DNA of 64,000 nucleotides, taken from assembly GCF_964204865.1 (NCBI RefSeq), contig NC_135255.1, forward strand, positions 15,004,001 through 15,068,000. Direction: 5' to 3'. The DNA is from Styela clava. Its lineage: Eukaryota. Below the pieces are notes generated by a model that saw only the letters and a program-made list of their open reading frames with translations, ran no database searches and was not told the DNA's origin. Below are positions 2,263-54,228 of this stretch, in pieces (the stretch's first letter is position 1; every line of letters begins with the position of its first letter). Both the position numbers and the translations under genes were made by a program.

Positions 2263-2267
2263 TAATT

Positions 2268-2485
2268 GGGCGCTCCAGAAGTGTGTGTACCAATATGGAG
2301 AAAACTAATTTGGTTTGCCTAATTTCCATCAAGTTGTGTAAAGGGACTGAAACCTATGGGATTCACCTATGTGTATATTCACTTTGCTAACGCAGACAGT
2401 CCCCGAACTCGTAATAGAACTAAAATAAGGAAAATCGGAATAAAATTATGGCCTAACTCTAACCTGGTACACATATATACTACCA
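2268..2485. mobile_element. MITE-like repeat with GTGTACCA...TGGTACAC inverted ends
   Basis: Inverted termini and an internal CCTAACYCTAACC motif. Related copies at ~17509-17725 and ~42643-42787. Confidence 0.55.
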
Positions 2486-4662: not shown

Positions 4663-4958
4663 CTAATTCGAATATGCAATTTAACCTTAAGCAGCATCTA
4701 TCTTTTTTTGTCTTTGAAATTACAAATGAATAAAATTACTAATTTTTAGATGAAGCATTTCATATCATTACTAAAATTAAGAATTTTTCATGTAGAATTA
4801 AACCAGATTAGAATCTGGTAAATTAATTTCACTCGAGCTGTAAAAGGTATTTAACTTTAGAGTGTTGAAACTACTGACGGTAGGTACCGTACAAAAACCA
4901 ACTTCCATTACTAGAGATTAGAGAAAATATAGAAATATAATCGCGCATCACATTATTT

Positions 4959-15997: not shown

Positions 15998-16525
15998 TCG
16001 ATCTTGAAAGTTCTGCGGACAATGTTTCAATATTGCAACATTCCGAAAAGCAAGCCAAGGCGTTTTCGTACCACACAATGCTGAAGACTAGAAAAATTTG
16101 TTAAATCACAATATCAATTTACAGTTTCGCGGACGACCGGCAAAATTCGTTCATCAAATATGAAAAGTGCCATCAATTATGAAAAATGTATTTTTGCCAA
16201 AAACTGGAAGCATTCTCTGTAAGTGCACAACACTATAGTATGGTGAAAATGCAATTAAGCATGTAAATGTACCAAATGAGGGAATGAAAACTCACGAGTA
16301 TTTTGCGAATTTCTTGACGCCAGTCCAATCTTCGAGATTCACTCTTAGTTCATAAAACCCGGATGAAGTTATTTGATGTAGCAATTCAAGGCCTGAATCA
16401 AAAAAAGACAGTCTTTGGTAGACTTTTTGTATAAAAAGTGCCAAAAACGCTGTATCGGAGAACTTTGTAATGTTGTTTTTTACAATGCGTGACAGAATGG
16501 CTTGCGCTGAAGCATGCAATTTCAC
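15998..16525 (-). pseudogene. FReD gene fragment (97-nt exon 16296-16392, intron, first bases of the terminal exon)
   Basis: Encodes GLELLHQITSSGFYELRVNLEDWTGVKKFAKY. Reverse complement aligns to 28900-29128 joined directly to 36584-36796, i.e. without the retrotransposon. Confidence 0.85.
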
Positions 16526-17001
16526 TGATGAAAGATTAGAACAGTAGCTCCCAAAGTGGGTTCCGCGGACCTTTTAATTTGCAAATTAATTTGATCTCGA
16601 AAAAAAAATTATGAAAATATCGTTGATAGATAGTTTTCAACCAAATATAAAATTGCCTGAAAGGTGAATTTGAATTTCGACTGGTTTAGTATTGAGCATT
16701 TTTGACTCCAACAACAACAATTAAGATTTTCAGTCATAAAATCGTCTTATAACTAAAAAGCATAATTAGGTATCTAGTAACTGTCATGGTCGGTTAATTG
16801 GGTTCTATATTACACGGCTGTAAACGTATGGGTTGTCCAATGCTGTTTACATGGTGGATGCTCAGATAGGTAATTTGCTTTCTGTTTCAGTATTTGCTAC
16901 ACGTCGGAACCAATGATTTGTTTTTCGTTCCCGAGTTCACCTTTTAGCTATTATTTTTAGCTAGTATTTAAATAATATTTAATCAAAATGTTTTCACTTA
17001 C

Positions 17002-17934
17002 TGGCTACAATCAGAAATAGCATCTGAGTCACCAATAAAATGATTATATTTCCGTCAAACGTTGCCGCGAACATTGTCGTAATCATAGTCATGATGCCTC
17101 TGCTTCAGCTACTATTTACTGGGGTGTCTCCACCGGAAAAATACATCATAATACATTTGTACTGTTATCTGGTGACGCTTGCATTCCTGATGCTTTCGCT
17201 CCTTGTTACTTATCGATCTTAAGATCGGTAAGTATGTTGATAGGTATTTGTCTGTCTGTCTGTTTGTTTGTCTGTTAGATGAACCCGATATCTCACGAAG
17301 GCGAGGTTGAATCTGCTCCAAATTTGCATGTGCATTCATCGTATCTCGGACTAGAAGCTTATTGATTTTGAATGAATCATGTCGTATAATTAGCGAGTCA
17401 TTAATTAATTAGTGATGGGACATGCGGAGTCACTATAGAGTCATGAATCGAAACCGCAGTTTCGATCGAAAAGTCATCGGTCTCCGACCGATATTCTCGT
17501 TTAATAATTGGGCGCTCCAGAAGTGTGTGTACCAATATGGAGATAACTAATTTGGTTTGCCTACTTTCCATCAAGTTGTGTAAAGGGACTGAAACCGATG
17601 GAATTCTATGTGTATATTCACTTTGCTAACGCAGACAGTCTCCGAACTCGTAATAGAACTAAAATAAGAAAAATCGGAATGAAATTATGGCCTAACCCTA
17701 ACCGGGCACACATACATACTACCAATAACTGTAACTTTGGTGATTAATAAATGATATAATAAGCTTCATTACGACCCATTAAATTGAAATTGGTATTACC
17801 TGAACTTAACAATTTCTCCAGCATCTTATTTTCACTTTTATATAAGAATGTCCGTATAGTCCGTTTCTAACAATTTTCCTTACTATGGGGAGATCTTCTC
17901 TTTGCAATCCGCGAATTCGCAATCCTTGATTCAT
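17002..17934 (-). pseudogene. NAT8-like GNAT pseudogene (exons 1-2 only), duplicate of 1797-2695
   Basis: Exon 1 17800-17934 has a TAA at 17806-17808 (AAA in copy A). Exon 2 17002-17098 has the same defective acceptor. Exon 3 is lost just after its acceptor (~16597). Confidence 0.8.
17203..17502 (+). mobile_element. Helentron-associated (DINE-1/HINE-like) element, full length
   Basis: 5' ACTTATCGATC and 3' GATCGA(T/A)AAGT subterminal inverted repeats, GTCT microsatellite, 3' hairpin TCGGTC-TCC-GACCGA, T-rich ends. Confidence 0.7.
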
Positions 17935-19394
17935 AGTAGAACGACCTAGCGTTTCATATAATCGGGGAATGCTTTCTAATCGTGGTATTTGCCGAACGTC
18001 TTTACATTAAACGTGAGCCGCAATCTGCGTTGCGTCACGTTATTATCGTATTATTTGTGAGATTAATTATTATAAGCTTCTTCATAATTGTCTCTTGTTA
18101 CTGAGAGTTCAACATGCTTTCGTTAGTCTTGTTTTCACTGGCGTATGCATGTAATTGAGAGTGTGAAGCACTTTGGTGATTTGTTGTGCCTGAATACGCC
18201 GCATGACTTTTGCTGAGCATGGGACTGAGGATGAGACAAAATGCGCATGCTGCTACATGCTAGGATAATAATTCTCCTCCATATTAAAAGTCACGTTTTC
18301 TCTGTGCGCTAGTGATGACGTAATTAATAGAGAATTTGTCCCAGAGACTTCTATAAATCCTCAATTAATATACAGAATAAAACATTATGTTGTAATTTGA
18401 TATAATTTGCTACAAATCGCTTTTCACTCGATAATATGTTAATATTTACTGAAAGCTATTATCTTCATTTTTTCAATTTTTTTGCGACCAGTGAGGATTA
18501 TTCTAATTTGAATTTTATTAAATTGGAAGGAATTCAGCATCAAGTGAACATATATCGACATAGGGATTTGTACAAAAATAATTGTTTTAAAACAAGTGTT
18601 TCAAATCAAGTTTTTTTGCCTCTTTTGTTCAAAATGGCTGTACTATTTGATTTTTTTTAATAAATAGAAAAAGGTTGGAGAAAGCGTATGCGGACGTGCT
18701 ATAAAACATTTTCCCGAATAGGTTGCGTTATGGTTTTTACGATTTTTCAGCTCATTTCAGCCAATCCTTTCACCAGCAACATTTGAACTAGCACGAGATT
18801 TCGCCAGATTACTGGCGCGATCACCGATCGCAAGGGCGGGAAAAATAGAATATTTCAAGTCAAATAATTCGAATATTTTCAGTGAATTGTGTAATATTGA
18901 CTATTTTTAATTCATAAACAACATGCATTCATAACGCTAGACATTCTAATGTTGGTGAGCTACATTTCTGCCCGTCCTCTTTTTTTAGACGGCAACGGCG
19001 AACCTCAAATTTGGTTTAAATTGCTGGGAGAACTATGCATTCATATCGGCGAAATATGTTAAAGACGGCTACGAAGGAGTGAATTTGAGAGTCATTGCGT
19101 GAATCCTGAATGTTATTTTGAGTGCAAATAATGATTTAATAAATCTGCAATAAGGACAATTATACTAGTTAAATAATAATTCCTCGGTGAAGTTTGGGAA
19201 AAATTTCGCACAATAATTTGTTACCTTGTTTGACATTTCCAATTTTACGAAATGGCGTTAGTGCGTTTTATGCAAAACTAAGAATTGAAACAATGCGTAA
19301 ATACGACTCCTCAAATTTGTTTGTGCACACACAGGGAGGAGTAAATTTTAACAAGTTCCAATATTCCAAATAGTATCTTGCATAGTAGTCCTAA

Positions 19395-19721
19395 TGTCAC
19401 GGTACGGAGATGTTGCTACCGTGGTTGTAGATGAATCAGAAGACTCGAGGATTCCGGATTGGTTGTTTATTGTACGGCAACTCCAATATCAAACTTAAAA
19501 CAGCATAACAGATTACATCACTGAAGAACTAAAAACACGACCGACCGCCAGCGCGGCAGCCGGAGAAAAGAGATCGAAAGACAGTTTTGCCTCACATGTA
19601 GTGAGTGGTCGGAGTCAAAATCCGACAAAACAGCATTAAATAAGGATCAACATAACAGTCTATGAACATAAGAAAAATATATATACACACAATATAAACA
19701 CGGACACTCTAGTCCGCGACA
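19395..19721 (-). mobile_element. Solo LTR, duplicate of 4339-4662
   Basis: TG...CA ends with CTAA TSD (19391-19394, 19722-19725). Confidence 0.7.
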
Positions 19722-20011
19722 CTAATTCGAATATGCAATTTAACCTTAAGCAGCATCTATCTTTTTTTGTCCGTGAAATTACAAATGAATAAAATTACTA
19801 ATTTTTAGATAAAACATTTCAAATATATCATTAAAATTAAGAATTTTTCATGTAGAATTAAACCAGATTAGAATCTGGTAAATTAATTTCACTCGAGCTG
19901 TAAAAGATATCTAACTTTAGAGTGTACTGACGGTAAGTAGCGTACGAAAACCAACTTCCATTACTAGAGATTAGAGAAAATATGGAAATATAATCGCGCA
20001 TCACATTATTT

Positions 20012-21786
20012 TTACAATTTCTTTTCCATATAATGAATATTAATACCAAGAAGCACAAACATTAGGGGTTTGTTAATAATTCTCGTCGTAATAAATCCAT
20101 GAGTTAAATACATCGAAATAGCAGGCATTTGCATCTCAGTGCAAACCAGTATGATTCGATTGTAGCTCAATGCAGAAGCTTCATCTACGGCATGTGCAAG
20201 CAATTTTCTTCCGATTCCTTTTCCTCTGAAGTTTGATGATACAGACATTCTCTATAAAATGAAATTTACACAGATATAATTTGATACACTTAGATTTAAA
20301 AAACCTGTGATTGCACAAAACGAAGACAATCACTTTACGAACGGCGTTAGCGATTGTTCCGTCAAAAGAGAAGATTTTCGGCAATATTTTTGCAAAAACG
20401 ATTATTACATGGTATACAGTACACTAAACTGGCAATGTATATGCCTTAAAATGACTGGTAAATGTTTTATCCTTTTTGCAGGCCTTTTTGTTCCTGATTA
20501 CTGACCAACTAATAAAGTTAAATATATATCTCCAACCTGATTATGATTTTGTTTCGACCTTGTTTGAATTATCTAGCAACTTACTTTTAATTTGATAGTG
20601 GATATTGGTTGTCGATTAGTAACGTCTTCTTGAGTTTTCAAAGCAATTGTCCCGACTATTAACGTATCATAATTTTCTATAAATTCCATCACCCAAAATC
20701 TCGGGTATGTGTTTTTGATTTCATCAAAATCATTGAGATCATTTATCTGACTTTCGACTGTGTTGATAAATTACAAAATACCTTGATAGAAGTATATACA
20801 ATAATATTATTGTTAATTTTTTTCAACCAAGTTGAAATTGAATGAAAGGTGAATTTGAATTGCGACTGGTTTATTTACACCAGCCTTGGGCGTCTTTGAC
20901 TCCAACAACAACAATCAAATTATTATTCATAATTTTATTTTACCCAAAACACAGCTCCGTATTTAATAACAAGGACGCTAATGAGATGGAATTAAGAAGT
21001 CTTGCTTGTTCATTCTTGTTAAAAGTGAAAGTGCGGATGTTATTTGTGGTATTCGAATTTTCATTTTTACTGCCCATCTCAACTATCAATTTTATCCATT
21101 TTCAAAATTAACTTCTTAACGGTATCTTTTCTCACAAAGAGTTTAATAATAATAGATACCTCATCATTAACTTTAAAATTTGTTTTCACTTACTTGCAAT
21201 AAACACAAAGAGTAATTCAGTTATCGAAGAAATTATGATGTTTCCGTCAAATATTGCCGTAAACATAGTAGTAATCATAGTCATAATGACCTGAAGTTTT
21301 GAAATAAAAATAATTCACCAAGTAGAGAAATAAATTCGTTTAACTGGTATTGTAGATTTGAGACTTGAAACGCCGCCTCCGCCAATATTTGCTGTCGTCT
21401 CTACCACATCAGAACATCATTTAAATATAAAACATAGTATATGTTTGAAAAGATTTGGGGTTAGGGTAACTAGTAACGCTTTCATTGCCTATATATATTT
21501 CCGAATTCGTTTGGGAATTTGTAACTTCATTTAAAGGTATCGTGAATAAAATATTAAATGATGACTAATAATCTAAATCTCCAAATCTCAACAATCATTC
21601 AATTGGTAATGGTGCTTGGCGATTAAATAAAATAAGAAACTATATTACCAGAACATTCCGATTTTTCCAGAATAGTATTTTCAACCCCGCGTAAAAACGT
21701 CCATACAATCCATTTCTCACAATTTTTCTGACTATAGGAAGATCTTCTATTTGTAATTCGCGAATCCGAAATAATCTTTTGTTCAT
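20012..21786 (-). pseudogene. NAT8-like GNAT, full exon set but with a premature stop
   Basis: Exons 21649-21786, 21194-21290, 20585-20781 and 20012-20251. CAA>TAA at 20771-20773 early in exon 3, where copy A has CAA. Motif FRGKGIG is intact. Confidence 0.8.
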
Positions 21787-23701
21787 AATGGGATGAGCTG
21801 GCATTTCACACAGTTGACCAAATCGAGATTACATTTTAAAAATCACAATGTACAAACTTTAGGTTTTAATGTGATTAATAAAATCGCTCTGCGTCACTTC
21901 CTCGTGTGTTTGTTCATAATAGGCTGCAATTGCAATCTTCATTTATTTTATCTAAACTATGCATTGAGTGATTCAGTTATCATTTATACTACAATCAATA
22001 ACATTCATATTGTTGAAATAAATGTAGAAAATTAACAGGACGTAAATTCATTTAAAATTAAATCGTAATTATAATGATCTATTCATTTACCGCGTGACGA
22101 TGCTACTTTCGCATCATTATTTTGTTCGATATTGTTTAACTGCTAACTCGTCATTCCTTGTTTGTTCCGCTTACTAAATAATCTGTCCACTGTAATTTAA
22201 AACAACGTTACTCACTGTTCGTTTTTTTCTATATAAACTATATAAATATTTTTTCTTAGCATTGTTATAAACTGATTGCCTGAAAAATCATGACTTTGGT
22301 TGATTAGACGAAACGTAACAGAATAAAAGCCTTTGAAACGCCAATATAGCCATTTTGATTTTCGCTACAGTATCCTTGAAGTGAATGCGGATCCAGGGCT
22401 AAATGTTTTTTTCAAGATCTAGATGTAAAATTTGGAGCCTAGATGTTAGCTATGAAATCTAGATTTTATTTTTTCAAGGTTCTAAATATTATTCAGTGGG
22501 AAATAAATAAAAAGATGTGTATAATACTGTGATATGTGAATGGATATTATTTCATTATTTAGAAATATCGATGTAAGATTGATAAAACTCATTTATATTG
22601 TATTCGTGAACCGGTACTATATGTATTTAAAATATTTAAATAACGAATTGAACATGTTTAAAACATGTGACGTTTTAATTAACGTTAAATAGAAAGGGCA
22701 ACGATGAGTCAGTGCTTATGTTGCCAAGGGTGACTTGTGTTGTTCAAGTTGCTTACTCCAAGATTTTAAAATTATAAAGGTATTTAAGTCTATAAGTGTC
22801 ATTAAATTTGTCTCTCTTTAAACAACAACCTATCAAAATGCCACATGTATGCACTACCAGCAAAAATTTAGAAAAAACTTAGATTGACTTATGGAATCAG
22901 CCTTTAAGGAATGGATTGCCCCTTCGGATGATAAGAACAAAGCCTTTTGTAAGTTCTGCAGGCGGGAATTGAATTCTAGCTTCTTCGACATCTAATATTA
23001 CGGTATTATGTAATATAATAAACATTGTATGGCAGCCCTGTACGGATCCGCTGACACGAGGTAAAGCGGGAGGAACAATAGTTCGACACACGCTAGCTAC
23101 TTCAATTAACGATAAATCGTGTTAGACTTGGTATTTGCTGAACATCTATATCTTGAAAGTCTACCAGAATTTGCGTTGTGATACTACAACAGCTTACCGT
23201 TGTCAGCATATCATATTTGGAGATATTAACATATATCTTGTTATCAAGAAGCTATTTGGATTTAAGCCTAGATTTATGTCATTAAGGGTGATGAATTTAC
23301 GACAAGCACGTTTGCGTTTTATCATATTCGATTACAAAATCTGGATTTTAGTGATAACAAGACTGAAGTAGTGCTTCGAAAAAAATAAATTGTAATATTA
23401 TGAAATGTGCATGCTACAACACCAAACGGGAATTATCGTAGATTCAGTGGAACAACCAGAAGTCTCCTTGGGAGCACAAAGACCAAACGAAGTGGAGACG
23501 ATAGAGAGGAGCTCAGCAATTCTATCGCACGTGCAGATAAGCGAATTTACACTTTTCACCATTTGGTAGTCGATTATGAACGCTTAGTACAGTATTACTG
23601 TTTCATACATATTGTTTAGAATGTTTTACATTTTTTAAGATATTGACGAAAAGATATTGTCACACCTCTACGTAACAGAGGAACTTGAGATTTTCAATGT
23701 A

Positions 23702-25412
23702 TCAACTTTCATGTAGATCCTTTTCCATGTACAATAAACGTATCCCGGACAGAACGGAAAACAAAGTTTCATCGATGATCTTAAATGTTTCGAATCCATA
23801 TCTTTTGTACAATGTAATAGCTGGCGGTTGCATGTCTGCGCAGTAAAGCACCATACGCTGAAATCCCATTTCTGTAGCTTGCTGTAGAGCATGCTCGAGC
23901 ATCTTGGAACCAATTTTCATTCTTCGTAGATTAGGCGTGACAGATAATCTCTGCTGAAAATAAATGATATAACGGATGCGATGATTAGAAATTACATGAT
24001 CATGGGTATATATGTGAATATATCAAAATTTATGAGCTCTGACAAAGGTTCATCGTGACCAGGAAATTAAAACATATATGAAACTATTAAATATTAGAAT
24101 CTCTTTTCACATTTATTTTTTTTTTAAAAATATTTTCACAAAACAAGATTACGCATACATACTCTATCAATAGTATCAACTCATATTCAAGCAAAGTAAT
24201 ATGAGGAAATGGAAGTGTAAAGTTTCACAGACACTATACTTGACTATGTGCCGTTTGTTGAACACAGACACACAACAAAAATTCGAATATTCATTAGCGT
24301 AATGAAGCTAATTACTCAAATCAACATATTTTTTCAATAATACGACTGGAAAATAATTGTCATCAACTTCGAATCAGCAAATTGCATTGTAATGTTATGA
24401 GCAAAAACTTACCTTTAATTCCACTGTTTGCGTTGAATCATGATCTTTGTCGCAAGTTGTCGTAAGCGCAACTGATGCAACAATCTGTTTTTGGTTATTT
24501 ATGATAACATCCAATATCCAGAATTTAATGTATTTTTTCGAAGCTACTCCAATATGTCTCAAGTCCTTCAGTTCGTTTTCAATACCAATGTAGAATTTTA
24601 AAAGGCCTGAATAGATGAATAGTTAGGTATATAGTTCATTATATTATTATATTATTCATATTTTCTTACATCCCAACGCCAGCGACGACTCTTGAGCGAA
24701 AATGATAAAAACAAACGTACAGATGTCTCCATCAAGCAAAATCATTAGCACTGTGGTGACAGCGAGGAGAATGATCTGAAACATAGTATTTTCAAAGTTG
24801 ATATTTACTGTCTGCCTGAAACAATTCTTTGGCACGAGAGCGTAAAAATAGCATACCTTCCTAATTTGTAGCCCAACCAATTTTAATTTTTCAGTAGGCC
24901 TACTCAAATAATCGAAGTTGTGGCATAATGCATTTCCTCTGAGAAGTACGATATCCGATATTCAATCTCAATTAGGCTGTTTCATTTTAATTCACGAGTA
25001 TTTTGTTTTATGACGTCAAGCGTGACTTCTACGTCACAAATGCACTCTGTGAATCGCACAGCGCAATGCGTTGAGAAATCCAAAAATATAAGACTGCTGG
25101 GCCACTTAGGCACTTAATGCAAATTTGCAGTGCTGCAATCGAATGATTTTGCAATCCTTGCTATTTTACACAGACATGTTGCGCACAAAAAGTATATTTA
25201 AAAAATTAAAACGTTCAATTGAAATATAATGTAATATGTGGTTCGACTTTTCATACCTGGGCCTTTATGTTCTGTCTAAAACAATCTTTTAAATTTTGTC
25301 GCCATAGTCCGTACATGTTGTCGCTGATCATTTTTATTGTTTCGTCAAAATCCTTCCTCTCTATCAAACGGATTCGTTTTTCAAGTTGTGTTTTCGAATA
25401 ATTCGTGCACAT
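23702..25412 (-). CDS. NAT8/camello-like GNAT N-acetyltransferase, ~234 aa, apparently intact (duplicate of 7741-9430)
   Basis: Exons 25257-25412, 24670-24775, 24413-24606 and 23702-23950. GT-AG, phases 0/1/0, open frame. Confidence 0.85.
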
Positions 25413-28706: not shown

Positions 28707-29128
28707 TGAATAATTTATTTGGCAATGACTCATTCACAGAATTTACTGAGTTTTTTCATAATCAGTGAAAATATTTGCATTTTCTGATGTCACCGGACCG
28801 ACCAAACAAGAAAAATTTATTGATATAAATTCTAGCATTTTCAAACAATTAGTGATTTGCTTTAACTCAACTCTTTCTGTCCTGCAATATTTAGTTCAAG
28901 TAAAATACAACATTACAATGTTCTCAGATACGACGTTTTGAGCACCGTATATACAAAAAGTCTACCAAAGACTGTCTTTTCTTGATTCAGGCCTTGACTT
29001 GCTACATCAAATAACTTCGTCCAGGTCCTATGAACTCAGAGTGGATCTCGAAGATTGGACTGGCGTCAAGAAATACGCAAAATACTCGTGAGTTTTCATT
29101 TCTTTGGTACATTTATACATTAATTGCA

Positions 29129-29716
29129 TGTAAGTGACGCCCTTTAACCTAATGATATTTGAAGGCGACAAATACGTCCCGACCGAGATGGCCGGCCTGT
29201 AGACTATATAGCTGGCTGTATTCCTAAATTCCTTCGTCCAATATGATTGCCACTAACTTGCAATGTGTTAAATTTATTTGAAACCAATTAATCCAGTTCT
29301 TTTATTGAGTGACGAAAGATAATACGGTGTACTGTAAATTATATTCTAATTCCGTGTGCCGTATACCGTATATTTAAAGAATTTTTTGGGCTACCAACTA
29401 CAAGTCTACATCTGTAGGACAAACATGCTTGATTAACAATAAACTAAATAAATGTGCAGCTTACTAACTAATCAATAACCTAAATGGACCTATACCGACG
29501 GTAAAGCAGAGTCGGAAACCTAAACATTTTAAGCTAAAACCTAACCTAAAACGGCGCTGCCAAATGCAAAGCGCAACCTGAAACAACGGGCTGACCTTGA
29601 GTCTGAGTCGGTCAAACGCGGGCTCTTGTCACGTGACATCTATGTGACGTCATAATAGGTGTTAAATGACCCATAACAATATTATGATTTAAAAAAGGGA
29701 AAGATTGATCGTTACA
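29129..29716 (-). repeat. 3' LTR of the BEL/Pao element
   Basis: Direct repeat of 35991-36578, adjacent to the polypurine tract. Confidence 0.95.
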
Positions 29717-29726
29717 TACCGCCCCC
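29717..29726 (-). other. Polypurine tract (GGGGGCGGTA)
   Basis: G-rich tract immediately 5' of the 3' LTR on the element's sense strand. Confidence 0.8.
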
Positions 29727-29979
29727 AATAACTTGACCGGGACTGTGGAAAGTTATTTCAAAACAAAACGATCAATAAATCACATAAAACATAACTAGTA
29801 ATCGAACGAAACTCATGAAACATCACTCCACAAATTGGTGGAATTATACAAAATGAATATATACATATAAACATATATCTTAGCGACCAAAAGCCAAATT
29901 GTCTTAATAGCCTCAATAAAGCTTATATAGAGCAAAGCCCATTAAATATATTGTAACATTTAGTCATTACAATCATGCT

Positions 29980-32900
29980 TCACAATTCTTCTAGGAAGCA
30001 TAATTTTCTGATATCACGAATGAAAGATGAAGAGGCAGTGTCTACACGCACTCTTCTAACATGACCATTACTATCAGGAAAGGTCTCCCTGATGATTCCT
30101 TTGGGCCATAAGCCTCGCTTGGTGTTCTCATCTACCACGAGAACTAAATCGCCTTCTTTGAAGTTTCTTTCAGGATGGAGCCACTTTTGTTTGGCCTGAA
30201 GTTGAAGATATTGCTTGATCCATTGTGACCAAAATTGATCCGCTAAGCAATGGACTAGTTTCCAGGATTTACGATATCCATCAGCTCGATTGAACTCTCC
30301 AGGAGAAAGCGACGAGTCAAGTTGACCCGTCAACAGCATCTTTGGAGTTAGAGGGGGAGAATCCGCAGCATCGTCACTGGATGAGGTGATAGGACGATTA
30401 TTGATGATTCGTTCCACAATGCACAGAAACGTTTGTAGGCCTTCATCATCAAGCACTCTTTCTCCAACCAGTGCATACAAAACTTTACGCACTGTACGAA
30501 TAATTCTTTCCCAACATCCTCCTTGGTGGGAAGCAAGTGGAGGTGAGTGGATGAACTTGACACCACGATTAAGCATATAGTCGTGTAATTTATCATTGTT
30601 CCAGCTCTTTATTGCAGCCTTGAGTTCTCGTTCGGCCCCAACAAATGTAGAGGCATTGTCACAGTAGATCTCCTTTGGCATGATATGACGACTTGAAAAT
30701 CGTTCCAAGGCATTCAAAAACGAATTGGTCTCCAAAGAATGTGAAACTTCGAGATGAACAGCACGAGAAGACATGCATGTGAAAACACAAACATATCGCT
30801 TTATTGTGCTTCTTCCTTGCTTGATTATGACTGGCCCCATATAATCTATTCCAGTCCATGTATAGGCTGGATGACCTGGGGTTACCCTGCTGGCAGGAAG
30901 AGGTGCCATAACTTGTTTGCCAACCTTTGCTCTTTGCATGCGGCATTTAAGACATTTCCTTAGGTAAGAGCGAACAGTAGATTGACCATGTATTATCCAG
31001 TATCGTTCTCGAATGACTGCAAGAACATGTAATGTGCCACTATGTCCCTCTTGCTCATAGTACTTTTTGATGAGTAATCTTGTCACATGGTGATCTTGAG
31101 GTAGAATTATTTGATGTTTGCTATGAAGTGGTAGCAAAGAATGTTGAAGACGTCCTCCAATTCTCATCAAATCATCTTCGATAAATGGACATAAATTCTG
31201 AAGTGACTGACACTGACCTTTACGAAGTTGACTCTTTGGAACCTTATGTTCTATATTATTCATTTCAAGATACTTCATTTGTTTAGAAAACACATCACGC
31301 TGGGTGATTCTGAGAATTTCATGAGTGGCATAATCCAGCTCATCAACACTTAATTTGCCTATATCTTGAAATTTAACTTTGTGCAAATACTTTGCTTTGC
31401 AGAATTTTGTGAAACGTATTATCCAAGCAATTGCCCTTTGAAGTCGCCCATAATCTGAGTAGCGCTCCATAAGCATAGACAATACAGACTTGACATTATC
31501 CTTTTCCATATTAACATTCGTATTTATTATAGTCTTGACTTCAGGATCATTTTCAGGAATTTGAGGTAAAACTTCAGGACGCTTAGGCCAGTGTTCCTGA
31601 GAATGCCAAAGAAATTCAGGCGCATTAAACCAAGAAATGGCTTTGTCGATACATCTGGGACTTAATCCTCGTGATGCTACATCTGCAGGGTTATTTTTAG
31701 TGTCTACATGTCTCCATTGATTAATCGATGAACTATTGTGAATTTGAGCCACTCGGTTAGCTACAAAAACATGATACCTTGCTGATGTATTTGATAGATA
31801 CTGGAGCACCGAAGTTGAATCTGTCCAGTAATGAACATTGTTGACTTTGTATTCCAACTCCTTTAGGACAAATCGACTGAGCTTCACTGCGAGTACAGCT
31901 GAACATAGCTCCAATCTTGGGATGGTAATCTGCTTTCTGGGTGTCACTCGAGATTTTCCCAAAACAAATGAGCAATGAATAACACCATTCTGTGACATCA
32001 TACGCAAATAATTTACTGCACCATATCCAACTTGGCTGGCATCACAAAACGTATGAAGCTCAATGTGGTCTGTCTTAAATCCTGGCGGTTTGAAACATCT
32101 GGGAATGGACACATCCTGCAGTCTCGGAAGCTCGTTAACCCATTTTTGCCATATTTCTTCATATCGGGTTGGGATCGGAGAGTCCCATCCAATATCTTGA
32201 GCACATAGAGTTTGCATGAGGCTTTTCATTGGTAAGATGAATGGTTGCATCATACCCAATGGATCATATATTTGTGATATCATAGAGAGACAACCACGTC
32301 TCGTGAGAGGCTTTGGCTTTATATCCACTTTCACAGTGAACTGGTCACTGACATTATTCCACATAATACCAAGTGTCTTAGAGCAATATGATTTATCAAG
32401 AGTTGAATCCAAAAAACTATCTTTAGCTTTGTCTATATCTGAAATAGAAGAAAGAACAGACCGGCAGTTACTGCGATACTTGGTAAGATGAAAACCTACA
32501 TTAGATAACAAGCAATCTAACTGATTAATGACATCAATAGCACAATGAGAAGAATCACAAGATTTCAAACAGTCATCAACATAAAAATTATTATTAACTG
32601 TATTTAAAACTTCAATATTAGCATTTGTTTCATTATCTATAGCAGCTCTTTTTAAAGCATATCCAGCTGCACTGGGTGAACTGGTTAGGCCAAAAAGACT
32701 TCTTGTCATAAAATAAGATTCAGGTTCTTTTGAAATGTCATCATTTGGATACCATAGGAACCTCAGAGAATCCCAATCATCAGGATGAACTTTAACTTGA
32801 TGAAACATTCCCTTTATGTCACACACAAAGGCTATGTCTTCCTGCCTGAATCTGGTCAGAACTCCAACAAGATTTGAGCAGTGGTCTGGTCCTTGTAATA

Positions 32901-35847
32901 CATGATTGTTGAGAGAGATATTGTCCACCTTGAATGAACAATCAAACACAAGCCTAAACTTTTCACCAGTTGAGTGATGAGGTAAATACCAAATCTTCCT
33001 TTCATCAGATGGGACATGGTCTTCAGGTATTTTCTTAGCATAATCATTGTCAATATATTCATGAATTTTTTCTTTGTATTTATCAAAATACTCTGGATCA
33101 CGTTGAAATTTTCTCTTCAAATAATCAAGTCGTTTCTTTGCAAATTTATAACTCTGTGGGAATTGTGGTTCTTCACATTTCCATGGTAACCTCATTTGAT
33201 AGTGACCATCGACCTTACATATTGAATCTTTCATGATTGACAAAGCTCTCGTATCTTCGATCGATGGCGCAAATTCTTCAGTGAAGTCAGATTCACTGAA
33301 GTCACAATTAAACATTCGTTGCAACTGCTCACAAAGAACATCTCTTTCAACATTAGCAAAATTGATAGACATACCATTGGTCCCCTTTGAAACATCTTTG
33401 CCTATGAGTGTCCATCCAAGTGGGGTATGAACAGCTGCAGGTTGGCCTTTATTCCCTAGTCTTTTATCTTGAATTATTAGAGCTTCATAATTATCAGCAC
33501 CAATCAATAATTCTGGTTCATGATTCCCTATTTCAGGAAAATCGAAACCGTTAAGATGCCGGTAACTTTGTATATCTGCCTTTGTAGGAAGTCCATCTGA
33601 AAGTATTGGAAGTGACTCAACAGCTAGAACATCTTCCAACATAAACTCGTCAGATTCCTGTAGACCCTTAACATTTAGGTGCAATCTGTAGCCGTTTTGC
33701 TTATGTAGGCCATTGACTGTGGAAATAGTGAAAGAATCTTGCTTTCCTTTCACCTTGAGTTTCTTCATAAGACTTAGCTTACAAAGAGTTGCATTTGAGC
33801 CATAATCAAGAAGTGCAGTGGTTTTCACAGAGTGTGAACCATCTGACGAAGTTACACTAACTGGTACAATCATGAGATATACCCTTTTCCTTGAATTGAG
33901 AATTGATGCATCAGTGCTTCCATTGACAACATGAGTTGAAGTGTCACTTGCTGCATTTCTATCAGAAGGCTTGTCCTGTCTGATACGTTCTTGGTTGTGT
34001 AGAAGCGAATGGTGCAATTTTCCGCAGTTCTCAATTTTGCATCGGTTGTCACTGGGACAGTTGCGTGCTACATGCTTGGTACGAAAACAATTGAAACATA
34101 AAGCTTTTGACTGAATAAACTTTGAACGGTCTGGAACAGACTTCTTGATAAAGGATTCACATTTCCACAACCTGTGGGGTCCATCACAAAGTAAACAATC
34201 CGAAAACACATTGGACGACTTAACTTGTGATGTTTGGGTGACATAAGCGGACACCTTGGTAGAATTATAGCTCTTTTTTGGCATAGCATTTCTATTCTTC
34301 AAATTTTGCTCTGCAGTGAGACGGCTCAGCCTAGTATCTGCCAATATTGCAGATTGATTAACAAATTTATACAAATCATGATATGTTGGTTCTTTGTCAC
34401 TATTGTAAGTAGATGTATGATGTCTTGTGAACTCTCTTTGCATTGGTACTGGAAGTCGTAAATAGATTTTGTCAAACAGATCTTGACTGTCAAGCTTAGA
34501 ACTATGTTCCCAATTTGTCAAAATGATACCACAATTACGCATTTGTGTGGCAAGATCATATAATGCTTCAGAATCTTGTGGCTTTATGCTAGGGCCATTT
34601 TTGAGTGAATCCATAAATGCGTTTACAACTTTGTAATCTCGTCCGAATTGTTGCTTAAGAATTGAGCGAGCATCAAGATAACCTTGCAAAGGTGGTTTTA
34701 CAATGATACACGATTCGATTGCTTTCCTGGCTTTTCCAGTACATTGATCAATCAAATAGTTAAGTTTAGTACGAGGATCTGCAATTTTACTATCATACAT
34801 ATCATCAAAATTTTGAATAAACCTGTGATAACTCAATGCATCTCCACCAAATTTCTCTATTTCTTGAGGTCCTTGTCTAATTGAAGATGCCATGCAATAC
34901 AGAGCATCAGCAAGACTCATTGAATTTTGGTTATCACCAACCGAAACTGGTGTAGGCCCATGGCTATAGCTAGTTGGATTACCTTGCATAAAAACTTGTC
35001 TATCAGGAACATGTTTAGACTCCTGTCTTCTTGGTTGAGGTTGCAGAATGCTATTGTATGTAAAAGATGAATTATATTGCATCTCTTGTGGTGCTTGATA
35101 GACTGGGTGATATCTGTCCGCAGCAGTATGGTTAATGTTACATTGCTCGTTATGTCTTTCCGGTGAGTGGTATTCAGCACCTGAGTAGCGTTGTTGTTCC
35201 GACTGGGGAACCTGACCAATATAAGGATGATTTGCTTGTTGTATGCTAGGGAGATAATCTTTGTTCATGTATGTTTGTGACGCGATAGGTGGGCTAGGAT
35301 GTCTTTGAAATGAAGGAGTTTGCTTGGTCTGGTGCTCATGAGAAACTGACGCTGGTTCAACTTCATCAAGACATGCATTAACTTGTTCGCCATATGCATT
35401 ATTTGGCATTGCGGGAGGCACATTTGAAACTTGAGTTACATCTTGTCGTAACGAAGAAATAGAACCTACACATGAAGGTGCCCGACTGGCGGACGCTAGA
35501 GATTCTAATTCCTCATCTATCATGGATGCCTTAGCGCGTGACAAGTTAATATCAATTTCAAGCTTTGCCTGCTTCATTTCAACCTTTTTCTGCTCCATTT
35601 CCACCTTTTTCTGCTCCATTTCCACCTTTTTCTGATCCATTTCCACTTTTCTTTGATCCATTTCTACTTTGCGTCTTTGGAGCTGGGCTTCATTCTCCAT
35701 CTCCTCCAACTTTAACTTTGTTAAACGAGCACGCTCCGAGCGCAGGCTGACACTAGACATCTTGCTACAATGCGAGCCATTAGATGCTGTACTTTTAGCA
35801 TCATCAAAAACTTGCCAATCAGCACTTGAACTGTTTGAAGCCATCAT
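29980..35847 (-). CDS. BEL/Pao Gag-Pol polyprotein, 1955 aa
   Basis: Gag with three Cys/His knuckles (CLLCDGPHRLWKC, CFNCFRTKHVARNC, CKIENCGKLHHSLLH), protease LLDYGS, RT FYVDD, Pao RNase H (FCDAS, IPRLEL, WTDS, NPAD), integrase (GIDYMGP, CDN, GGCWER) in PR-RT-RH-IN order. Confidence 0.97.
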   Translation of the reverse strand: MMASNSSSADWQVFDDAKSTASNGSHCSKMSSVSLRSERARLTKLKLEEMENEAQLQRRKVEMDQRKVEMDQKKVEMEQKKVEMEQKKVEMKQAKLEIDINLSRAKASMIDEELESLASASRAPSCVGSISSLRQDVTQVSNVPPAMPNNAYGEQVNACLDEVEPASVSHEHQTKQTPSFQRHPSPPIASQTYMNKDYLPSIQQANHPYIGQVPQSEQQRYSGAEYHSPERHNEQCNINHTAADRYHPVYQAPQEMQYNSSFTYNSILQPQPRRQESKHVPDRQVFMQGNPTSYSHGPTPVSVGDNQNSMSLADALYCMASSIRQGPQEIEKFGGDALSYHRFIQNFDDMYDSKIADPRTKLNYLIDQCTGKARKAIESCIIVKPPLQGYLDARSILKQQFGRDYKVVNAFMDSLKNGPSIKPQDSEALYDLATQMRNCGIILTNWEHSSKLDSQDLFDKIYLRLPVPMQREFTRHHTSTYNSDKEPTYHDLYKFVNQSAILADTRLSRLTAEQNLKNRNAMPKKSYNSTKVSAYVTQTSQVKSSNVFSDCLLCDGPHRLWKCESFIKKSVPDRSKFIQSKALCFNCFRTKHVARNCPSDNRCKIENCGKLHHSLLHNQERIRQDKPSDRNAASDTSTHVVNGSTDASILNSRKRVYLMIVPVSVTSSDGSHSVKTTALLDYGSNATLCKLSLMKKLKVKGKQDSFTISTVNGLHKQNGYRLHLNVKGLQESDEFMLEDVLAVESLPILSDGLPTKADIQSYRHLNGFDFPEIGNHEPELLIGADNYEALIIQDKRLGNKGQPAAVHTPLGWTLIGKDVSKGTNGMSINFANVERDVLCEQLQRMFNCDFSESDFTEEFAPSIEDTRALSIMKDSICKVDGHYQMRLPWKCEEPQFPQSYKFAKKRLDYLKRKFQRDPEYFDKYKEKIHEYIDNDYAKKIPEDHVPSDERKIWYLPHHSTGEKFRLVFDCSFKVDNISLNNHVLQGPDHCSNLVGVLTRFRQEDIAFVCDIKGMFHQVKVHPDDWDSLRFLWYPNDDISKEPESYFMTRSLFGLTSSPSAAGYALKRAAIDNETNANIEVLNTVNNNFYVDDCLKSCDSSHCAIDVINQLDCLLSNVGFHLTKYRSNCRSVLSSISDIDKAKDSFLDSTLDKSYCSKTLGIMWNNVSDQFTVKVDIKPKPLTRRGCLSMISQIYDPLGMMQPFILPMKSLMQTLCAQDIGWDSPIPTRYEEIWQKWVNELPRLQDVSIPRCFKPPGFKTDHIELHTFCDASQVGYGAVNYLRMMSQNGVIHCSFVLGKSRVTPRKQITIPRLELCSAVLAVKLSRFVLKELEYKVNNVHYWTDSTSVLQYLSNTSARYHVFVANRVAQIHNSSSINQWRHVDTKNNPADVASRGLSPRCIDKAISWFNAPEFLWHSQEHWPKRPEVLPQIPENDPEVKTIINTNVNMEKDNVKSVLSMLMERYSDYGRLQRAIAWIIRFTKFCKAKYLHKVKFQDIGKLSVDELDYATHEILRITQRDVFSKQMKYLEMNNIEHKVPKSQLRKGQCQSLQNLCPFIEDDLMRIGGRLQHSLLPLHSKHQIILPQDHHVTRLLIKKYYEQEGHSGTLHVLAVIRERYWIIHGQSTVRSYLRKCLKCRMQRAKVGKQVMAPLPASRVTPGHPAYTWTGIDYMGPVIIKQGRSTIKRYVCVFTCMSSRAVHLEVSHSLETNSFLNALERFSSRHIMPKEIYCDNASTFVGAERELKAAIKSWNNDKLHDYMLNRGVKFIHSPPLASHQGGCWERIIRTVRKVLYALVGERVLDDEGLQTFLCIVERIINNRPITSSSDDAADSPPLTPKMLLTGQLDSSLSPGEFNRADGYRKSWKLVHCLADQFWSQWIKQYLQLQAKQKWLHPERNFKEGDLVLVVDENTKRGLWPKGIIRETFPDSNGHVRRVRVDTASSSFIRDIRKLCFLEEL

Positions 35848-35990
35848 AAATGATATGATTAGAGAAATGAATTTACAATAATCAGTCAGTGAAATTTATT
35901 TGTACAAGTCAATCTTGAATTGTGGCCTGGGCAATCCTAAATGCGTTGAGTGGCTTGTCCACTCAATGCCACGAAAAATTCTTTAAACGA

Positions 35991-36578
35991 TGTAAGTGAC
36001 GCCCTTTAACCTAATGATATTTGAAGGCGACAAATACGTCCCGACCGAGATGGCCGGCCTGTAGACTATATAGCTGGCTGTATTCCTAAATTCCTTCGTC
36101 CAATATGATTGCCACTAACTTGCAATGTGTTAAATTTATTTGAAACCAATTAATCCAGTTCTTTTATTGAGTGACGAAAGATAATACGGTGTACTGTAAA
36201 TTATATTCTAATTCCGTGTGCCGTATACCGTATATTTAAAGAATTTTTTGGGCTACCAACTACAAGTCTACATCTGTAGGACAAACATGCTTGATTAACA
36301 ATAAACTAAATAAATGTGCAGCTTACTAACTAATCAATAACCTAAATGGACCTATACCGACGGTAAAGCAGAGTCGGAAACCTAAACATTTTAAGCTAAA
36401 ACCTAACCTAAAACGGCGCTGCCAAATGCAAAGCGCAACCTGAAACAACGGGCTGACCTTGAGTCTGAGTCGGTCAAACGCGGGCTCTTGTCACGTGACA
36501 TCTATGTGACGTCATAATAGGTGTTAAATGACCCATAACAATATTATGATTTAAAAAAGGGAAAGATTGATCGTTACA
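35991..36578 (-). repeat. 5' LTR of the BEL/Pao element
   Basis: Direct repeat of 29129-29716. Contains TGACGTCA and TCACGTGA palindromes and sense-strand AATAAA. Confidence 0.95.
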
Positions 36579-38246
36579 TTGCATTTGCACCATATACTAT
36601 AGTGTTGTGCATTTATAGAGCATGCTTATTATTTTTGACCAAAATGCACTTTTCATAATTGATCAACAAATTTTTCCAGTCGACAGCGAAACTATATATA
36701 TTGTGATTTAACACGGTTTTTAGGAAAAATCCTTGGTTTGCTCATCGAACTGTTGCAATATTAAAATATTTAATGTCCTCAGGTCTTTCAAGATCGGCAG
36801 TGCGAGTACCCAATATCAGCTCGGTGTAGGTGGCTATTCTGGTGATGCTACGGATGCCATGTCCCAAAAAAACGGAATGAAATTCTCAACAAAAGATAAG
36901 GATCACGACACTTGGAGCAAAAATCGCGCTGTATCCCACACATTTATCCAATCTTAATGGAAAATACTATAAAGGTGGTACACACTCTTCTTATGGTGAT
37001 AGGGTCAATTGGTATGGATGAAGAAGATATCTTTATTCCCTCAAATTTACGGAGATGAAAATTTGACCAACTGCATAAAGTGGGAGAAAGATGAAATGCT
37101 GAAAAATTGTTTCCAAACAATATTTTGATATTTTCTTTCAATTTCCAATACATATACAGAAAACACAGGAGGGTGGCAGACAATACTGGGAGCTGACTTT
37201 TCAATACGGGATGTCATCTCGCTTCCAAATGTCTGCACAGAAAATCTGGTTTTTAATTTCGTTTTCTGATTGCGATTACAGGTCTGATTTTCGTAATACT
37301 AAACCATAAATCACAAGTACTTCTGGGTTGAGGATATGTAGTGTGAAGTCTTAATATCGACATACATATACGTGTGTTCAAATCATTAAATTTTTCTCAA
37401 TCTTAATGCATTCATGATATATGAGCTGATATGAACAGACAATATAGGTGCAAGGGGTGATTTGGTGTATGCAAACCAACAGCCAACAGACGTTTTTTTT
37501 TGTTTTTATACATCTGCAGAGATAGACTATCTAAATAGTGAATGATTTTGACAAGAAGGTTATAATAACTTCATTCAGAAACATAAGCAAAATCGTAATA
37601 TATACGATATATCACATATATATCACGGAAAATATAATTCAAAATTTGTATTACATATAAATCAACATCAAAGACAGCAACCTACTGCTACTACATCTAC
37701 TTGTTGCTTGCATGAAACTTTGGTGAGAATATCGAATTATAATCAGACAAAAAAGATCGATATGTAACGATTTGATAAATCGTTGTTGAAATTGCTTTTG
37801 TTGTGAGTCTCATTATTGTAATGGTTGTTTATGGGTTGGTAAAAAGTTGCTTTTCTACGCAATTTTTCAGTGTAGGCGACTTAATAATAGAATAAGTCGA
37901 AAGAGGGCTATTACATTTACTTGTAATTCAACAACTAAAGACATGGACAATAATTTCATCTCATATTGCCATCAAACTGAGGCATATTTTGTATTTTCCA
38001 TTTATATAGCTATTCCAGAACGATTAAGTAAAGCTGACTAAATGTAATATGGCATGGATCAAATGATTGTCTCAATGCAATACCACACAAATCCAATTCT
38101 CCGATTCTAAGATTTCCGATATTTAGTTAAATTTGTCTTGCCGTTGCAATAAGGTAATTAGGTTCAATATACCAAGTTAACGTAGTCATTACTTCCGTTT
38201 ATATATATTTGAGAAATGTTCTCTTTATCAGAAACAGCATTTATTG

Positions 38247-49291: not shown

Positions 49292-51349
49292 GTCGGTAAG
49301 CTTTGACTTTGCATAAAAATGAAACAGTTGGCAATACCCGCAATTGTGTCATACGTACCGCAAGAAGTGAAGTGTTGTCCACCGTGGCGAACACCATCTA
49401 TCTAATGCGATTTATTTCTGGTCCGCTCTTGGTAGTATATACAATGAAACTGTACCGGTATGTCAGTATAAACAGTATGTTTAAGCGTTTGCATGAAGAG
49501 CTTCATTGAAACAAATGTAATAACAAAACCTGAACGCGAGCTCACGACAACCCATATAAATTTATACAACGAACACCCACAAGATGTCCTTTGCTTGAAA
49601 ACTTCAAACAAAATGTTTCTGAATAAGACGCCAAATAAGAGTATTGTACACGATTATAAAGTTTAGTATATCATTCGGATCATGTGTAGAAAAACCCGGT
49701 CAAAAGACGCCCATGCCACCGCTCATAATAAAAAATAGTAATTATCCAGTTAAGGTCGGAAATGATTTCAAAATTTGAATCATTCGAGGAGTGACCAACC
49801 AGTCAGAAACCAAGAGCCGCATTTCGTACTTTATTAACGCAAACAGTCACATTATAAACAAGAATACACATGAGCATCTGATATAGCCTACCTCTATTCG
49901 ACTCTGCTAGAATGCTATTTTGTGTAAATGTCACTATAACAAACATGATTATGACAGAATTGACAAGCTATTTATTATTACGCATGCTACTTAGTGGAAC
50001 TTCTGGCATTCCTTGGATTGAGCGATGCTCTTTAAATTTGGTTTGTATGTCGTTGTAGCAAATCGAAGCAATTCTTTAACATGCGTGTCAGTCAGAAAAG
50101 ACTAATGCTTTGATTTCGCGTGTTTCAGGGTAAATAACACAGATTCGCAGACGTATGTTGACCCAAACATTGGCAATATCCTAAGCGCAGCTTGTTTGAC
50201 ATTGGGGTATTTTCCCATTGGAATGCTTTTCTATAACTCAATGGTCCTTTCCCTTAAAGCGCATTTCAGTTGGTCTTCTTCATAAAGATCGATCATCTTA
50301 AACTCAGTTGTAGTCGGCGAGGGTTGTTTCCCAAATCCCACATTCTTTCATTAGTGCTTAGTGGCGGTCGGCGGGGACTTTCTACAAAAGGTGCTACCAT
50401 TCTCGGAAGCATAATTATTCTATATATAAATTAAATGATATATATATAAACAACCATTCCATACATCTGAAACAAATTACTTGCTAATCAATCCCATACC
50501 TGACATGGACTGGTAACTGGACGAAGGGCCTCAGCTTTGTATCAGAATGAACAGAAAGGCACATCACACACGCAATTTTCTGCGTTTCATTTTCAGTGCC
50601 CGCGGCAGCATGTTTTACTTGACGCGGGGCTCTTCGGACAAAATTTACGGTGTTTTCTTGCTTTACTCTTAGTGCGTATGATATCGTTTCGATCTGTAAA
50701 AGAGCATACCTCCGCGCCAATTTCAATCTGAGATGTTCTATGAATTTAGAAACGGTAAACCCGAGAGAGAGAGAGAGAGAGGTTATTTCATTTTGTCAAA
50801 CCGTAAATATATGTCAAACCAAGAAAACAATATATACATACATACATAACAAGAGATAGAGTCAGTTAGCACAAGAGACAGAAAGGATCAAATTGATGAA
50901 CTGTCTGTCAGTCTTAGTATTCCTCCACTTACAGGCAGACATTTGGTTTGCAGATTCACTCATTTGAATTATCTTATTGCCATGCATCTTGTCGCCATGG
51001 TTGCAAAATACCGCATTTTTATTATAAAAAGTAAATTAAAATGAACTACAAATTTAAAACGGGATATTCAAACAATCAATACCTAAAGCAGCGCACACGA
51101 TAGTTTCAGATGAGGCATGAATACATCTGCTTCGAATCAACGCAGTAGGCTAAGTTTAATGTAATTAATTTGGGGTAATTAGCCTCGCCGTGGGCTGCCA
51201 GGCGTGACGTCGTTAATTAAGTGAGATACTTATACAACAGATCCTCGTCAGTAGCGGTGGCGCAGGAGAAGCGTAGAGACATGGTTAAACATCAGGCCAG
51301 GTATGAGGATGAGTTCGAACCCCGCAGGGTAGAGTTGTAGGGATGGACA

Positions 51350-52330
51350 ACCAGACACGACAGGCGGTCGAAGGAGGAAAAAGGACCAACGAGCAAGCGA
51401 GAACAGTAGTTCAAGAAGAGCAGGGATGAAAAGCATACGAAGCAGGCGGTCAAAAAAAGGGAGCAAGCGAGAACAGCAGTCCAATAAAAGCAGAGGATGA
51501 AAAGCAGACGAAGCAGGCGGTCGAAGGAGAAAAGGGAGCCAACGAGCAGGCGAGAACAGCAGTCAGTCCAAGCAGGCGGTCTAATGAGAGGGAGAGAGCA
51601 AGCGAGAACAGCAGTCCCAAGAAAAGCAGACGAGGCAGGCGGTTGAAGAAGAAAAAAAGCCGACGAGCAGTTCAAGAAGAGCAGGGAAGAAAAAAAGCAG
51701 ACGAGCAAGCGAGAACAGCAGTTCAAGAATAGCAGGGATGAAAAAGCAGACAAGGCAGGCGGCCAAAAAAGGAAATAAAGTTCACGAGCAAGCGAGAAAG
51801 AACAGCAGTCCAAGAAGAGCAGAGGGGAAAAAGCAGACAAGGCAGGTGGTCGCAAGCGAGAACAGCAGGGATGAAAAAGCATGCAAAAAAAAGTGCATGG
51901 GGCTGGACCACTGGACCAGCAAAGGAGCTGACAAGCAAGCCCAGTCCAGAACGGCAGCGTTCATGGGGCTGGACCGCTGGACCAGCAAAGGAGCCGACAA
52001 GCAAGCCCATAACAGCAGCAGCCAAATAGGGTGGTAGACAACCTCACTGGGTTGTAGGAGCCAACGAGCAAGTCAGAAAGAACAGCAGCCAAAGAAAATA
52101 TGCTAGGGTTGGTTACACGACGAGCGGCCTAACTGAGCGTGAGGCAGCCAGAGGGGAGGAAAAAGAGCCGACAAGCAAGCCAAATGGTGGTAGACTGAGC
52201 ATTGAAAAACGAGAGAAAAAGTCTGAGGCAGTGAGCAGAAGTCCTGAATGGGGGGACTTGCTGACGAGCAAGAAGAGAGACAGACAAAGTCTAGGAAAAC
52301 AGATGAAGGGGAAAACCAGAACCGCAGCCA
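51350..52330. repeat. Degenerate purine-rich ~78-bp minisatellite plus an ~66-bp direct repeat
   Basis: Recurrent CGAGCAAGCGAGAACAGCAGT and AAAAGCAGACGAAGCAGGCGGTC units. CATGGGGCTGGACCRCTGGACCAGCAAAGGAGC occurs at ~51896 and ~51962. Confidence 0.8.
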
Positions 52331-54228
52331 AGTTTGCTTATGACACTATTGAAAATTCTAAGATGAAGTTAGGCGCAATATGCGTTGTGTTTTTGTAAGT
52401 ATAGGTTATACGATACACGAAGTTTAGACAAGTTCAAGTGGTTATCTGTAGAGAAATATTATAAGAAGGTGAGTAGTTAAACGTAAAAAGTTTTTGTTTC
52501 AACGTCGCTTTATGCAGACATGATCTCGTGATAAATCTTCAACAAAATCTGATTCATAATTGGTTGCGAATCTGCCAGCGCTTATCGATCAGTGGGAAGA
52601 GACATAGGTAAGCCATCAAGCGTAGTCGTGCAAACTAAATTATCCTTATGTGGCGTTTTCACTTCCGAGGAAAGTCAGCTTAACCTCTTCCAGATTACCA
52701 CACAAACATCTATACTGCTATTTTCCAGTTGAACTGAAAAGGGCGAATAAAATGATTATTTCAGGAGTAAAACGACCAGGCCCCTATTACCGGCATTTGA
52801 GGAGTGTCCGCCAGAGACCTAACCTAAATATGGTCCTGAGGCGGAGCTTGTGGTGTTTTCACTGGAGTTGTCCGCCCTTGTGAAAAAAATTGAAGACGAA
52901 CGCTTCTCTGAATATTTGAACGAATTTTCACGCAACACCTTTGTGACGGAACAAACCATTCGAGGCAGAAGAGAGGTTGACGGATTTTTTTTTTGTACAA
53001 ATGGCATGTTATTAAAGGAGGCTCCCCAAGATTTTGTAACCGAAATATGAAATTTATATTTTTGAAAATTAAAGACCCATCCACCCAATTTGTTACCATT
53101 TGTTCATTCAATATTTTTTTTATTATTATTTGATGTCCGCCAAACTTTACTGATAAAACCGCTTACGATAACCACTCTTCCACACACCTACAATTCGAAA
53201 AGCTTGGTATGACACCAATTAATCATTTACCCTGCAGCACTTTTCAGACGGAACAAACCATCGGAGGTAGACGGGAAATTTTCAAGGTTTTCCATATGCT
53301 AAAATTTTTGTTACTAAAAGTTATTTTCACAGACTTAGGAAATTATTATCGGAGTCGAACTTAAATTTTTTACAACCCGGAATTCGGGAGTTGATTATAA
53401 ATTTTCCTTGGCTACCTCAGCAAAGACCCCACCTTGAAATTAGTTGAACACATCAACACGAGCAGTTGTTGCAGACATGAAGATATATTGAAATAAGTAG
53501 CATGATACCAAAAAAGGGCACATATTTGATTTCAAATGTTAGATATAGGCAAGAAGTGTAAAAATTCGTAACATCACCGTCTTGGAAATTATTGCTCACA
53601 AAACAATTTAAGTAACTATTTGATATTTATCAAGCTTCTATTTCAATTTTACTAAATATGAAAAAAATGACGCTCTAATATTTTGTTTTCTAGTTATAAA
53701 TATTATGTAATTTCACAAGCAGCGTAGAAAAAAAAAATTAAAAATCGAAGAAATTGATAGATTGCCTCGCAAGTATAATGATAAATTTTGCTTTGGATGG
53801 GATGTACAACGTAACAAAAAGTAACTAATGTATAATATAATGCCGGAACGAAAAGTAACTAATTTTTTATATGATGCCGGGATCAACTGATGCAGTGAAT
53901 AAACGCGCGAATATGTACATCATAGTCTGGCGAAAGGTCGCAATACACAGTAATAAATTTCATTGTGGATCGTGAAAATCTTCAGACTATGCCTGACTTG
54001 AAAGGACTAATGTGCAAATACCTTTTAAACGAACTACAAACCGACTGCAGTACAAAGTTTGGAAAATAAATCACTGCAAAACGTCAACTCTCATTTCCAC
54101 TATGGTAGTAATACTGCAATTGATACTATTTGAGGTATCACCAAGGCAGACGCGCAACGAGATGACTCACAAAAAAATGTCAGTTAATAGACGACGTACA
54201 AAAAATAAATCTTAACACAGTAAACGCT

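Follow-up and report, generated by a model that had tools for sequence, protein, structure and literature searches.

A BEL/Pao retrotransposon of Styela clava likely primed by its own LTR RNA, the primer apparently being completed by splicing in related families

Introduction

In the retrotransposon Tf1, the transcript's first 11 bases pair with the primer-binding site, and the RNase H cut falls between bases 11 and 12 (PMC7175516). Self-priming of this kind has been reported or predicted for the Tf1/sushi group, Tcn1 and the copia TAR lineage (PMC6317226, PMC4600332). For Belpaoviridae, the ICTV describes a primer site of 18 nt matching the 3′ terminus of tRNA-Arg or tRNA-Gly (PMC8742986). 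An earlier note on the present DNA knew of no description of self-priming in BEL/Pao; neither this nor a spliced primer was found among titles and abstracts, a scope that excludes subscription journals, Repbase notes and supplements. Primer sites are likewise unmentioned in main-text passages of PMC554778, PMC3118150 and PMC6238403, whose supplements could hold annotations.

Here we describe a BEL/Pao element in a 64,000-nt stretch of Styela clava DNA (the window) and compare its primer site with those of related families.

Results

An intact BEL/Pao element

The element lies on the minus strand and has the following structure.

29129-36578, minus strand: complete BEL/Pao retrotransposon with two identical LTRs and a target duplication
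35991..36578, minus strand: 5′ LTR, 588 bp, TGT...ACA, 100% identical to the 3′ LTR
29129..29716, minus strand: 3′ LTR, holding a second copy of the primer segment at 29373-29386
36579..36583 and 29124-29128, minus strand: 5-bp target-site duplication TGCAA, flanking the element
29980..35895, minus strand: single open gag-pol frame, 1,971 aa from stop to stop, first ATG at 35847
29717..29726, minus strand: purine-rich tract adjoining the 3′ LTR, putative plus-strand primer

The 1,971-aa frame encodes DUF1759, reverse transcriptase (RT), the Pao domain PF05380, an integrase zinc finger and DUF5641. Membership of BEL/Pao is established by the Pao-type Pol domains (PF05380, DUF1759, DUF5641), with RT before integrase, and by TG...CA LTRs, target duplication and purine tract; the domains are not of the Ty3/gypsy type found in the Tf1/sushi chromoviruses. 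The element is an intact, recently inserted BEL/Pao retrotransposon, and the earlier description of it as young holds. Its closest protein match (97% identity) is labelled Styela clava in the source, and its other protein relatives come from ascidians, echinoderms (sea urchins), cnidarians (corals), one hemichordate and one bivalve. Named BEL/Pao reference elements (Sinbad, Sparrow, Surcouf, Suzu, Tas and others) were absent from the protein matches, and no relative was found in viral contigs.

Elsewhere in the window, a DDE_Tnp_1_7 (PF13843) transposase occupies two frames at 12748-14281 on the plus strand. A duplication spaced 15-16 kb joins ~100-9500 to 16500-25400, with 93-100% identity in many blocks, and older copies of some of these blocks occur at 38-46 kb. 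The stretch at 51001-53000 is strongly skewed (A-/G-rich), carries on its minus strand a frame of 222 aa that matches no Pfam family, and is probably a simple repeat.

The primer site is complementary to the element's own LTR

The region following the 5′ LTR contains these features.

35988..35990, minus strand: spacer TCG, 3 nt, between U5 and primer site (0-6 nt in related families)
35974..35987, minus strand: primer-binding site, 14 nt, without TGG, able to pair with the LTR segment and set 3 nt from the U5 edge
36235..36248, minus strand: 5′ LTR segment predicted to act as the self-primer, 14 nt (15 counting a U-G wobble), of an intronless family
36168-36163 and 36140-36135, minus strand: AATAAA signals (two), which lie 66 and 94 nt downstream of that segment
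35946..35966, minus strand: hairpin of 8 bp with a 5-nt loop just downstream of the primer site, read from the sequence

The layout reported in the earlier note, with TCG and then a 14-mer after the 5′ LTR and no TGG, was reproduced. No TGG occurs in the first 19 nt after the LTR, and the first lies at 35971-35969. The 14-mer (35987-35974) is the exact reverse complement of 36248-36235, as had been reported, and likewise of 29386-29373 in the 3′ LTR. The positions given for the segment (upstream of the AATAAA signals) and for the pairing (3 nt from the U5 edge, the length of the TCG spacer) are also correct. As in Tf1, the site is complementary to the element's own 5′ LTR and lies beside U5; the 18-nt site for a tRNA-Arg or tRNA-Gly 3′ end, which is a descriptive and not a phylogenetic criterion of the ICTV, is absent.

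The match was compared with several controls. None of 2,000 dinucleotide-shuffled LTRs contained a 14-nt complement (mean 6.7, maximum 12), and none of 312 other internal 20-mers of the element had a complement of at least 10 nt. Three further full copies of the element retain a 13-nt pairing. The primer-site 15-mer has seven matches in the genome: five are copies of the element, and the two non-cognate matches both fall outside tRNA genes, one of them within the coding region of another element. The 14-mer is A+T at 13 of 14 positions and overlaps TTTAAATA.

Host tRNAs were compared for 63 of 33,143 candidates. Thirty tRNA loci were fetched, all from one cluster, and the one scanned was tRNA-Lys. 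This dense tandem cluster of tRNA genes spans G000:C2:15.88-15.94 Mb (L131-L160), and the five genes in L131 are tRNA-Lys(TTT).

Pairing covaries across BEL/Pao families

The genome contains at least 150 PF05380 matches, of which 100 were fetched as a first set. Seventy-two of these, together with the element, had an LTR pair and a perfect 5-bp duplication and formed 20 families, with 34-52% RT-RNase H identity to the element; the 28 others lacked one or both features and were left out. In none of the 20 families does the sequence after the LTR start with TGG, and this sequence differs in each. Contiguous complementarity followed the family: it averaged 8.95 nt against the cognate LTR and 6.93 nt against non-cognate LTRs (20-family matrix, 0/100,000 permutations), and reached at least 9 nt in 11 families. 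When one splice was allowed, the means were 11.0 and 7.0 nt, respectively (20 families, 0/100,000 permutations). A direct-repeat control, in which the site was matched to the antisense LTR, gave the background level of 7.3 nt. A conserved TATA box upstream of the segment was not found (1/20 families).

A second set comprised 20 BEL elements picked by another domain. Eight were left out, among the loci that passed L179 and L186 were excluded for wrong boundaries, and the new families L178/L180/L184 fitted at 7+5 nt, while the fit of L185, also new, was judged by eye. L174 and L176, which are outside the 22 families of the final count, have 11 contiguous nt as judged by eye. In that count, in which L063 represented its own family, all 22 families had a complement of at least 9 nt (9-14 nt) within the first 20 nt after the LTR, while each of the next 13 windows downstream reached this length in only 0-3 of them. 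TGG was absent from the first 10 nt after the LTR in every one. Broken matches were seen in the young copies L037 (LTR segment, 6 nt), L096 (acceptor) and L069 (3′-end pairs), and in the older copy L009.

Pairing with the own LTR is thus a lineage trait of the BEL/Pao families in this genome. The earlier note had proposed self-priming and named covariation among sister families as a check; each family has a distinct site with a complement in its own LTR, which supports the proposal. Since distinct, family-matched pairings have been kept in the relatives, the group likely starts DNA copying from a piece of its own RNA.

Other features of these families were noted. By eye, the primer-site sequence is partly repeated shortly downstream, within the first 40 nt after the 5′ LTR, in the L045, L099 and L124 families, and the leaders of L120 and L033 can pair with the primer site, giving a possible competing hairpin. 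L032, L033, L037, L052, L056, L117 and L185 are 4.4-6.1 kb long with near-identical LTRs, in families whose members measure 7-8 kb, and are therefore likely to be internally deleted yet recently moved. LTRs of the L078, L045 and L253 families end in TA, not CA, with perfect target duplications.

An LTR intron splits the predicted primer segment in related families

In 12 of the 22 families, the complement forms only across an intron in the LTR, a feature absent from the earlier note. The intron has a donor-like GT and a pyrimidine-rich AG at its ends. In these families the complement is 6-9 nt unspliced and 10-14 nt spliced, and the intron site lies 5 nt before the 3′ end of the segment in all 12. 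The splice-site rules were fixed after the first families had been seen and were relaxed twice, for an AAG acceptor (L124) and a GTGAG donor (L185), both resolved by eye.

The copy L085 lacks exactly the intron predicted for L090 (226 nt) and L084 (230 nt). For L041, contigs from two studies (runs X1 and X5, presumed RNA) carry the predicted 74-nt GT..AG skip, which is absent from X6 and from the genome-sized X10. The loss in L085 and the X1/X5 junctions establish that the LTR intron in related families is real. The transcript data consist of nine presumed-RNA sets, all contigs, which cannot show a start site. The spliced contigs extend at least 30 nt upstream of the donor; they therefore derive from the 3′ LTR, from read-through RNA or from an upstream start, and give no evidence of a short first exon.

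When the intron label was mapped on a 20-family tree, it required two changes, against a mean of 6.9 for shuffled labels (0/500). The element falls in a seven-family clade without the intron. With midpoint rooting, we infer two intron losses, a direction favoured by L085 and by the intron-bearing relatives found elsewhere.

In the LTR at L041:2053-2134, high-depth contigs of X1 and X5 use the intron donor position and then run into unrelated sequence. This suggests that LTR fragments are exonised in host transcripts.

Possible signature of a primer end and predicted folding

Across the 22 families, the helix has its 3′ end directed at U5 and is separated from it by 0-6 nt. A C directly follows the 3′ end of the helix in 20 of them, at an LTR C content of 17%; the element's own family is one of the two without it. 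The pairing reaches no further than 9-14 nt upstream from the segment's 3′ end. Among minority site variants, the first unpaired base shifts towards the LTR in five of six independent cases (by eye; binomial 0.018), a pattern that copying of the primer into the site would produce. In Tf1, about half of the cDNA keeps a copied primer-binding site (PMC11042837).

The predicted probability of the element's helix was 0.95-0.98 with an RNA start up to 20 nt upstream of the segment, and 0.02 with a start at 40 nt. The corresponding probability exceeded 0.5 in 17 of the 22 families with a start at the segment, and in 7 with a start 40 nt upstream. For L066, L065, L120 and L058, the helix is predicted to be mostly unformed in cis at equilibrium.

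Gypsy and metagenome comparisons

Gypsy elements served as controls, with 12 of 20 delimited and eight left out. TGG was present in the first 10 nt in 11 of the 12, and complementarity reached only 4-6 nt in all, in LTRs that were shorter (177-241 bp, one 745).

Of 80 metagenome loci, 72 were dropped and eight kept, in which the LTR was whole and its end defined. Seven of the eight scorable relatives fitted (1/40,320 permutations), six when spliced (11-15 nt) and one contiguously (10 nt); L210 did not score. An exploratory scan of eight more metagenome loci, made with no independent LTR end and no null, gave spliced candidates in seven. The top contiguous entries at region ends in that scan were rejected as script artefacts.

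Discussion

Taken together, the analysis makes it likely that minus-strand DNA synthesis of the element is primed, as in Tf1, by RNA from a segment of its LTR and not by a tRNA. By analogy with Tf1, transcription would start at or shortly before the LTR segment, and the 5′ end of the transcript would fold onto the primer site. The element's RNase H would then cut just 3′ of the helix, before the C present in 20 of 22 families, and RT would extend the freed 3′ end into U5. In the intron families, the complete primer would exist only in the spliced 5′ end. Because strong-stop DNA would begin downstream of the cut, the unspliced 3′ LTR copy would be the one to pass on the segment and its intron; the intron would be lost when that copy is spliced. 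Such inheritance would explain the intronless L085, and also L037 and L096, in which the LTR segment or acceptor is damaged and the site unchanged.

It is improbable, though it would fit several observations, that the same LTR-derived primer comes not from the capped 5′ end and instead from the 3′ LTR of the same RNA, from its partner RNA in a dimer, or in trans from short or solo-LTR transcripts. The segment is present in both LTRs, LTR-only matches are numerous, the cis helix is weak in several families, and the spliced contigs have those 30 or more nucleotides upstream of the donor. However, if spliced 3′ copies were used routinely, the intron should soon disappear, and just one loss copy was seen among ten intron-bearing families. 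The point at which complementarity ends, 9-14 nt upstream of the 3′ end, also looks bounded by a 5′ end.

The pairing might instead be a structural switch acting in translation, packaging, dimerisation or site protection, with a tRNA fragment or other small host RNA as the primer. The ICTV listing of Belpaoviridae as tRNA-primed (PMC8742986) and the half-tRNA priming known in copia lineages (PMC6317226) would favour this, as would the small part of the host tRNA candidates covered by our comparison (63/33,143). We consider it very improbable: 22 distinct AT-rich sites would require many different host RNAs, the genomic matches of the 15-mer beyond the five element copies are one coding region and one site outside tRNA genes, and a primer end would account for the constant polarity, the offset of 0-6 nt and the conserved C. 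A chance AT-rich match or a TATA box resembling a site, the caveat attached to the earlier note for a 14-mer so rich in A+T and overlapping TTTAAATA, is hardly credible and is refuted at the lineage level by the shuffle, position and cross-family controls. Against it, too, the homologous segments for the most part do not resemble a TATA box, and an intron interrupts them in 12 families, about half, so that they must be transcribed and the caveat fails as a general explanation.

Priming by the element's own LTR RNA therefore remains our reading of this locus, and we think it probable that it extends further: a widespread animal BEL/Pao lineage would be tRNA-independent, its ancestral primer would be built by the spliceosome through the LTR intron so that only spliced RNA starts reverse transcription, and the intronless forms would have arisen from copied spliced 3′ LTRs. 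If so, BEL/Pao would be the third superfamily with self-primed reverse transcription, and the ICTV description of Belpaoviridae as tRNA-primed would be corrected. A spliced primer would couple the replication of these elements to the host spliceosome and provide the host with a control point, while the elements would be free of tRNA supply and of tRNA-fragment defence. It would also explain why tRNA-based primer-site filters miss them. The cut site, the junction and the length of the primer are predicted exactly and can be put to a direct test.

Comparison with known systems

What would be new is the occurrence of a known mechanism in a superfamily regarded as tRNA-primed, together with the apparent completion of the primer by splicing. 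Tf1 and Tf2 of Schizosaccharomyces pombe, Tj1 of S. japonicus, the Tf1/sushi group and Tcn1 likewise have a site of about 11 nt that complements the 5′ LTR beside U5 and use no tRNA (PMC7175516, PMC4600332, PMC6317226). Whereas that group belongs to Ty3/gypsy, the present families belong to the PF05380 Pao superfamily, with 9-14 nt of pairing and a 0-6-nt offset, and an intron splits the primer in 12 of 22. The start site and RNase H cut, shown for Tf1, are here predicted from it. In the TAR lineage of plant Ty1/copia elements (Houba, Osr-1), self-priming was predicted by the same criterion, with at least 10 nt of pairing 0-5 nt from the LTR (PMC6317226); those are copia elements of plants, and no spliced primer is described for them in the part of that source dealing with the lineage. 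With the Belpaoviridae of the ICTV, the present families share LTRs of 0.2-1.2 kb, a PR-RT-RH-IN gag-pol, a purine tract and a metazoan host, but the tRNA-Arg or tRNA-Gly site of that description occurs in none of the 22 (PMC8742986).
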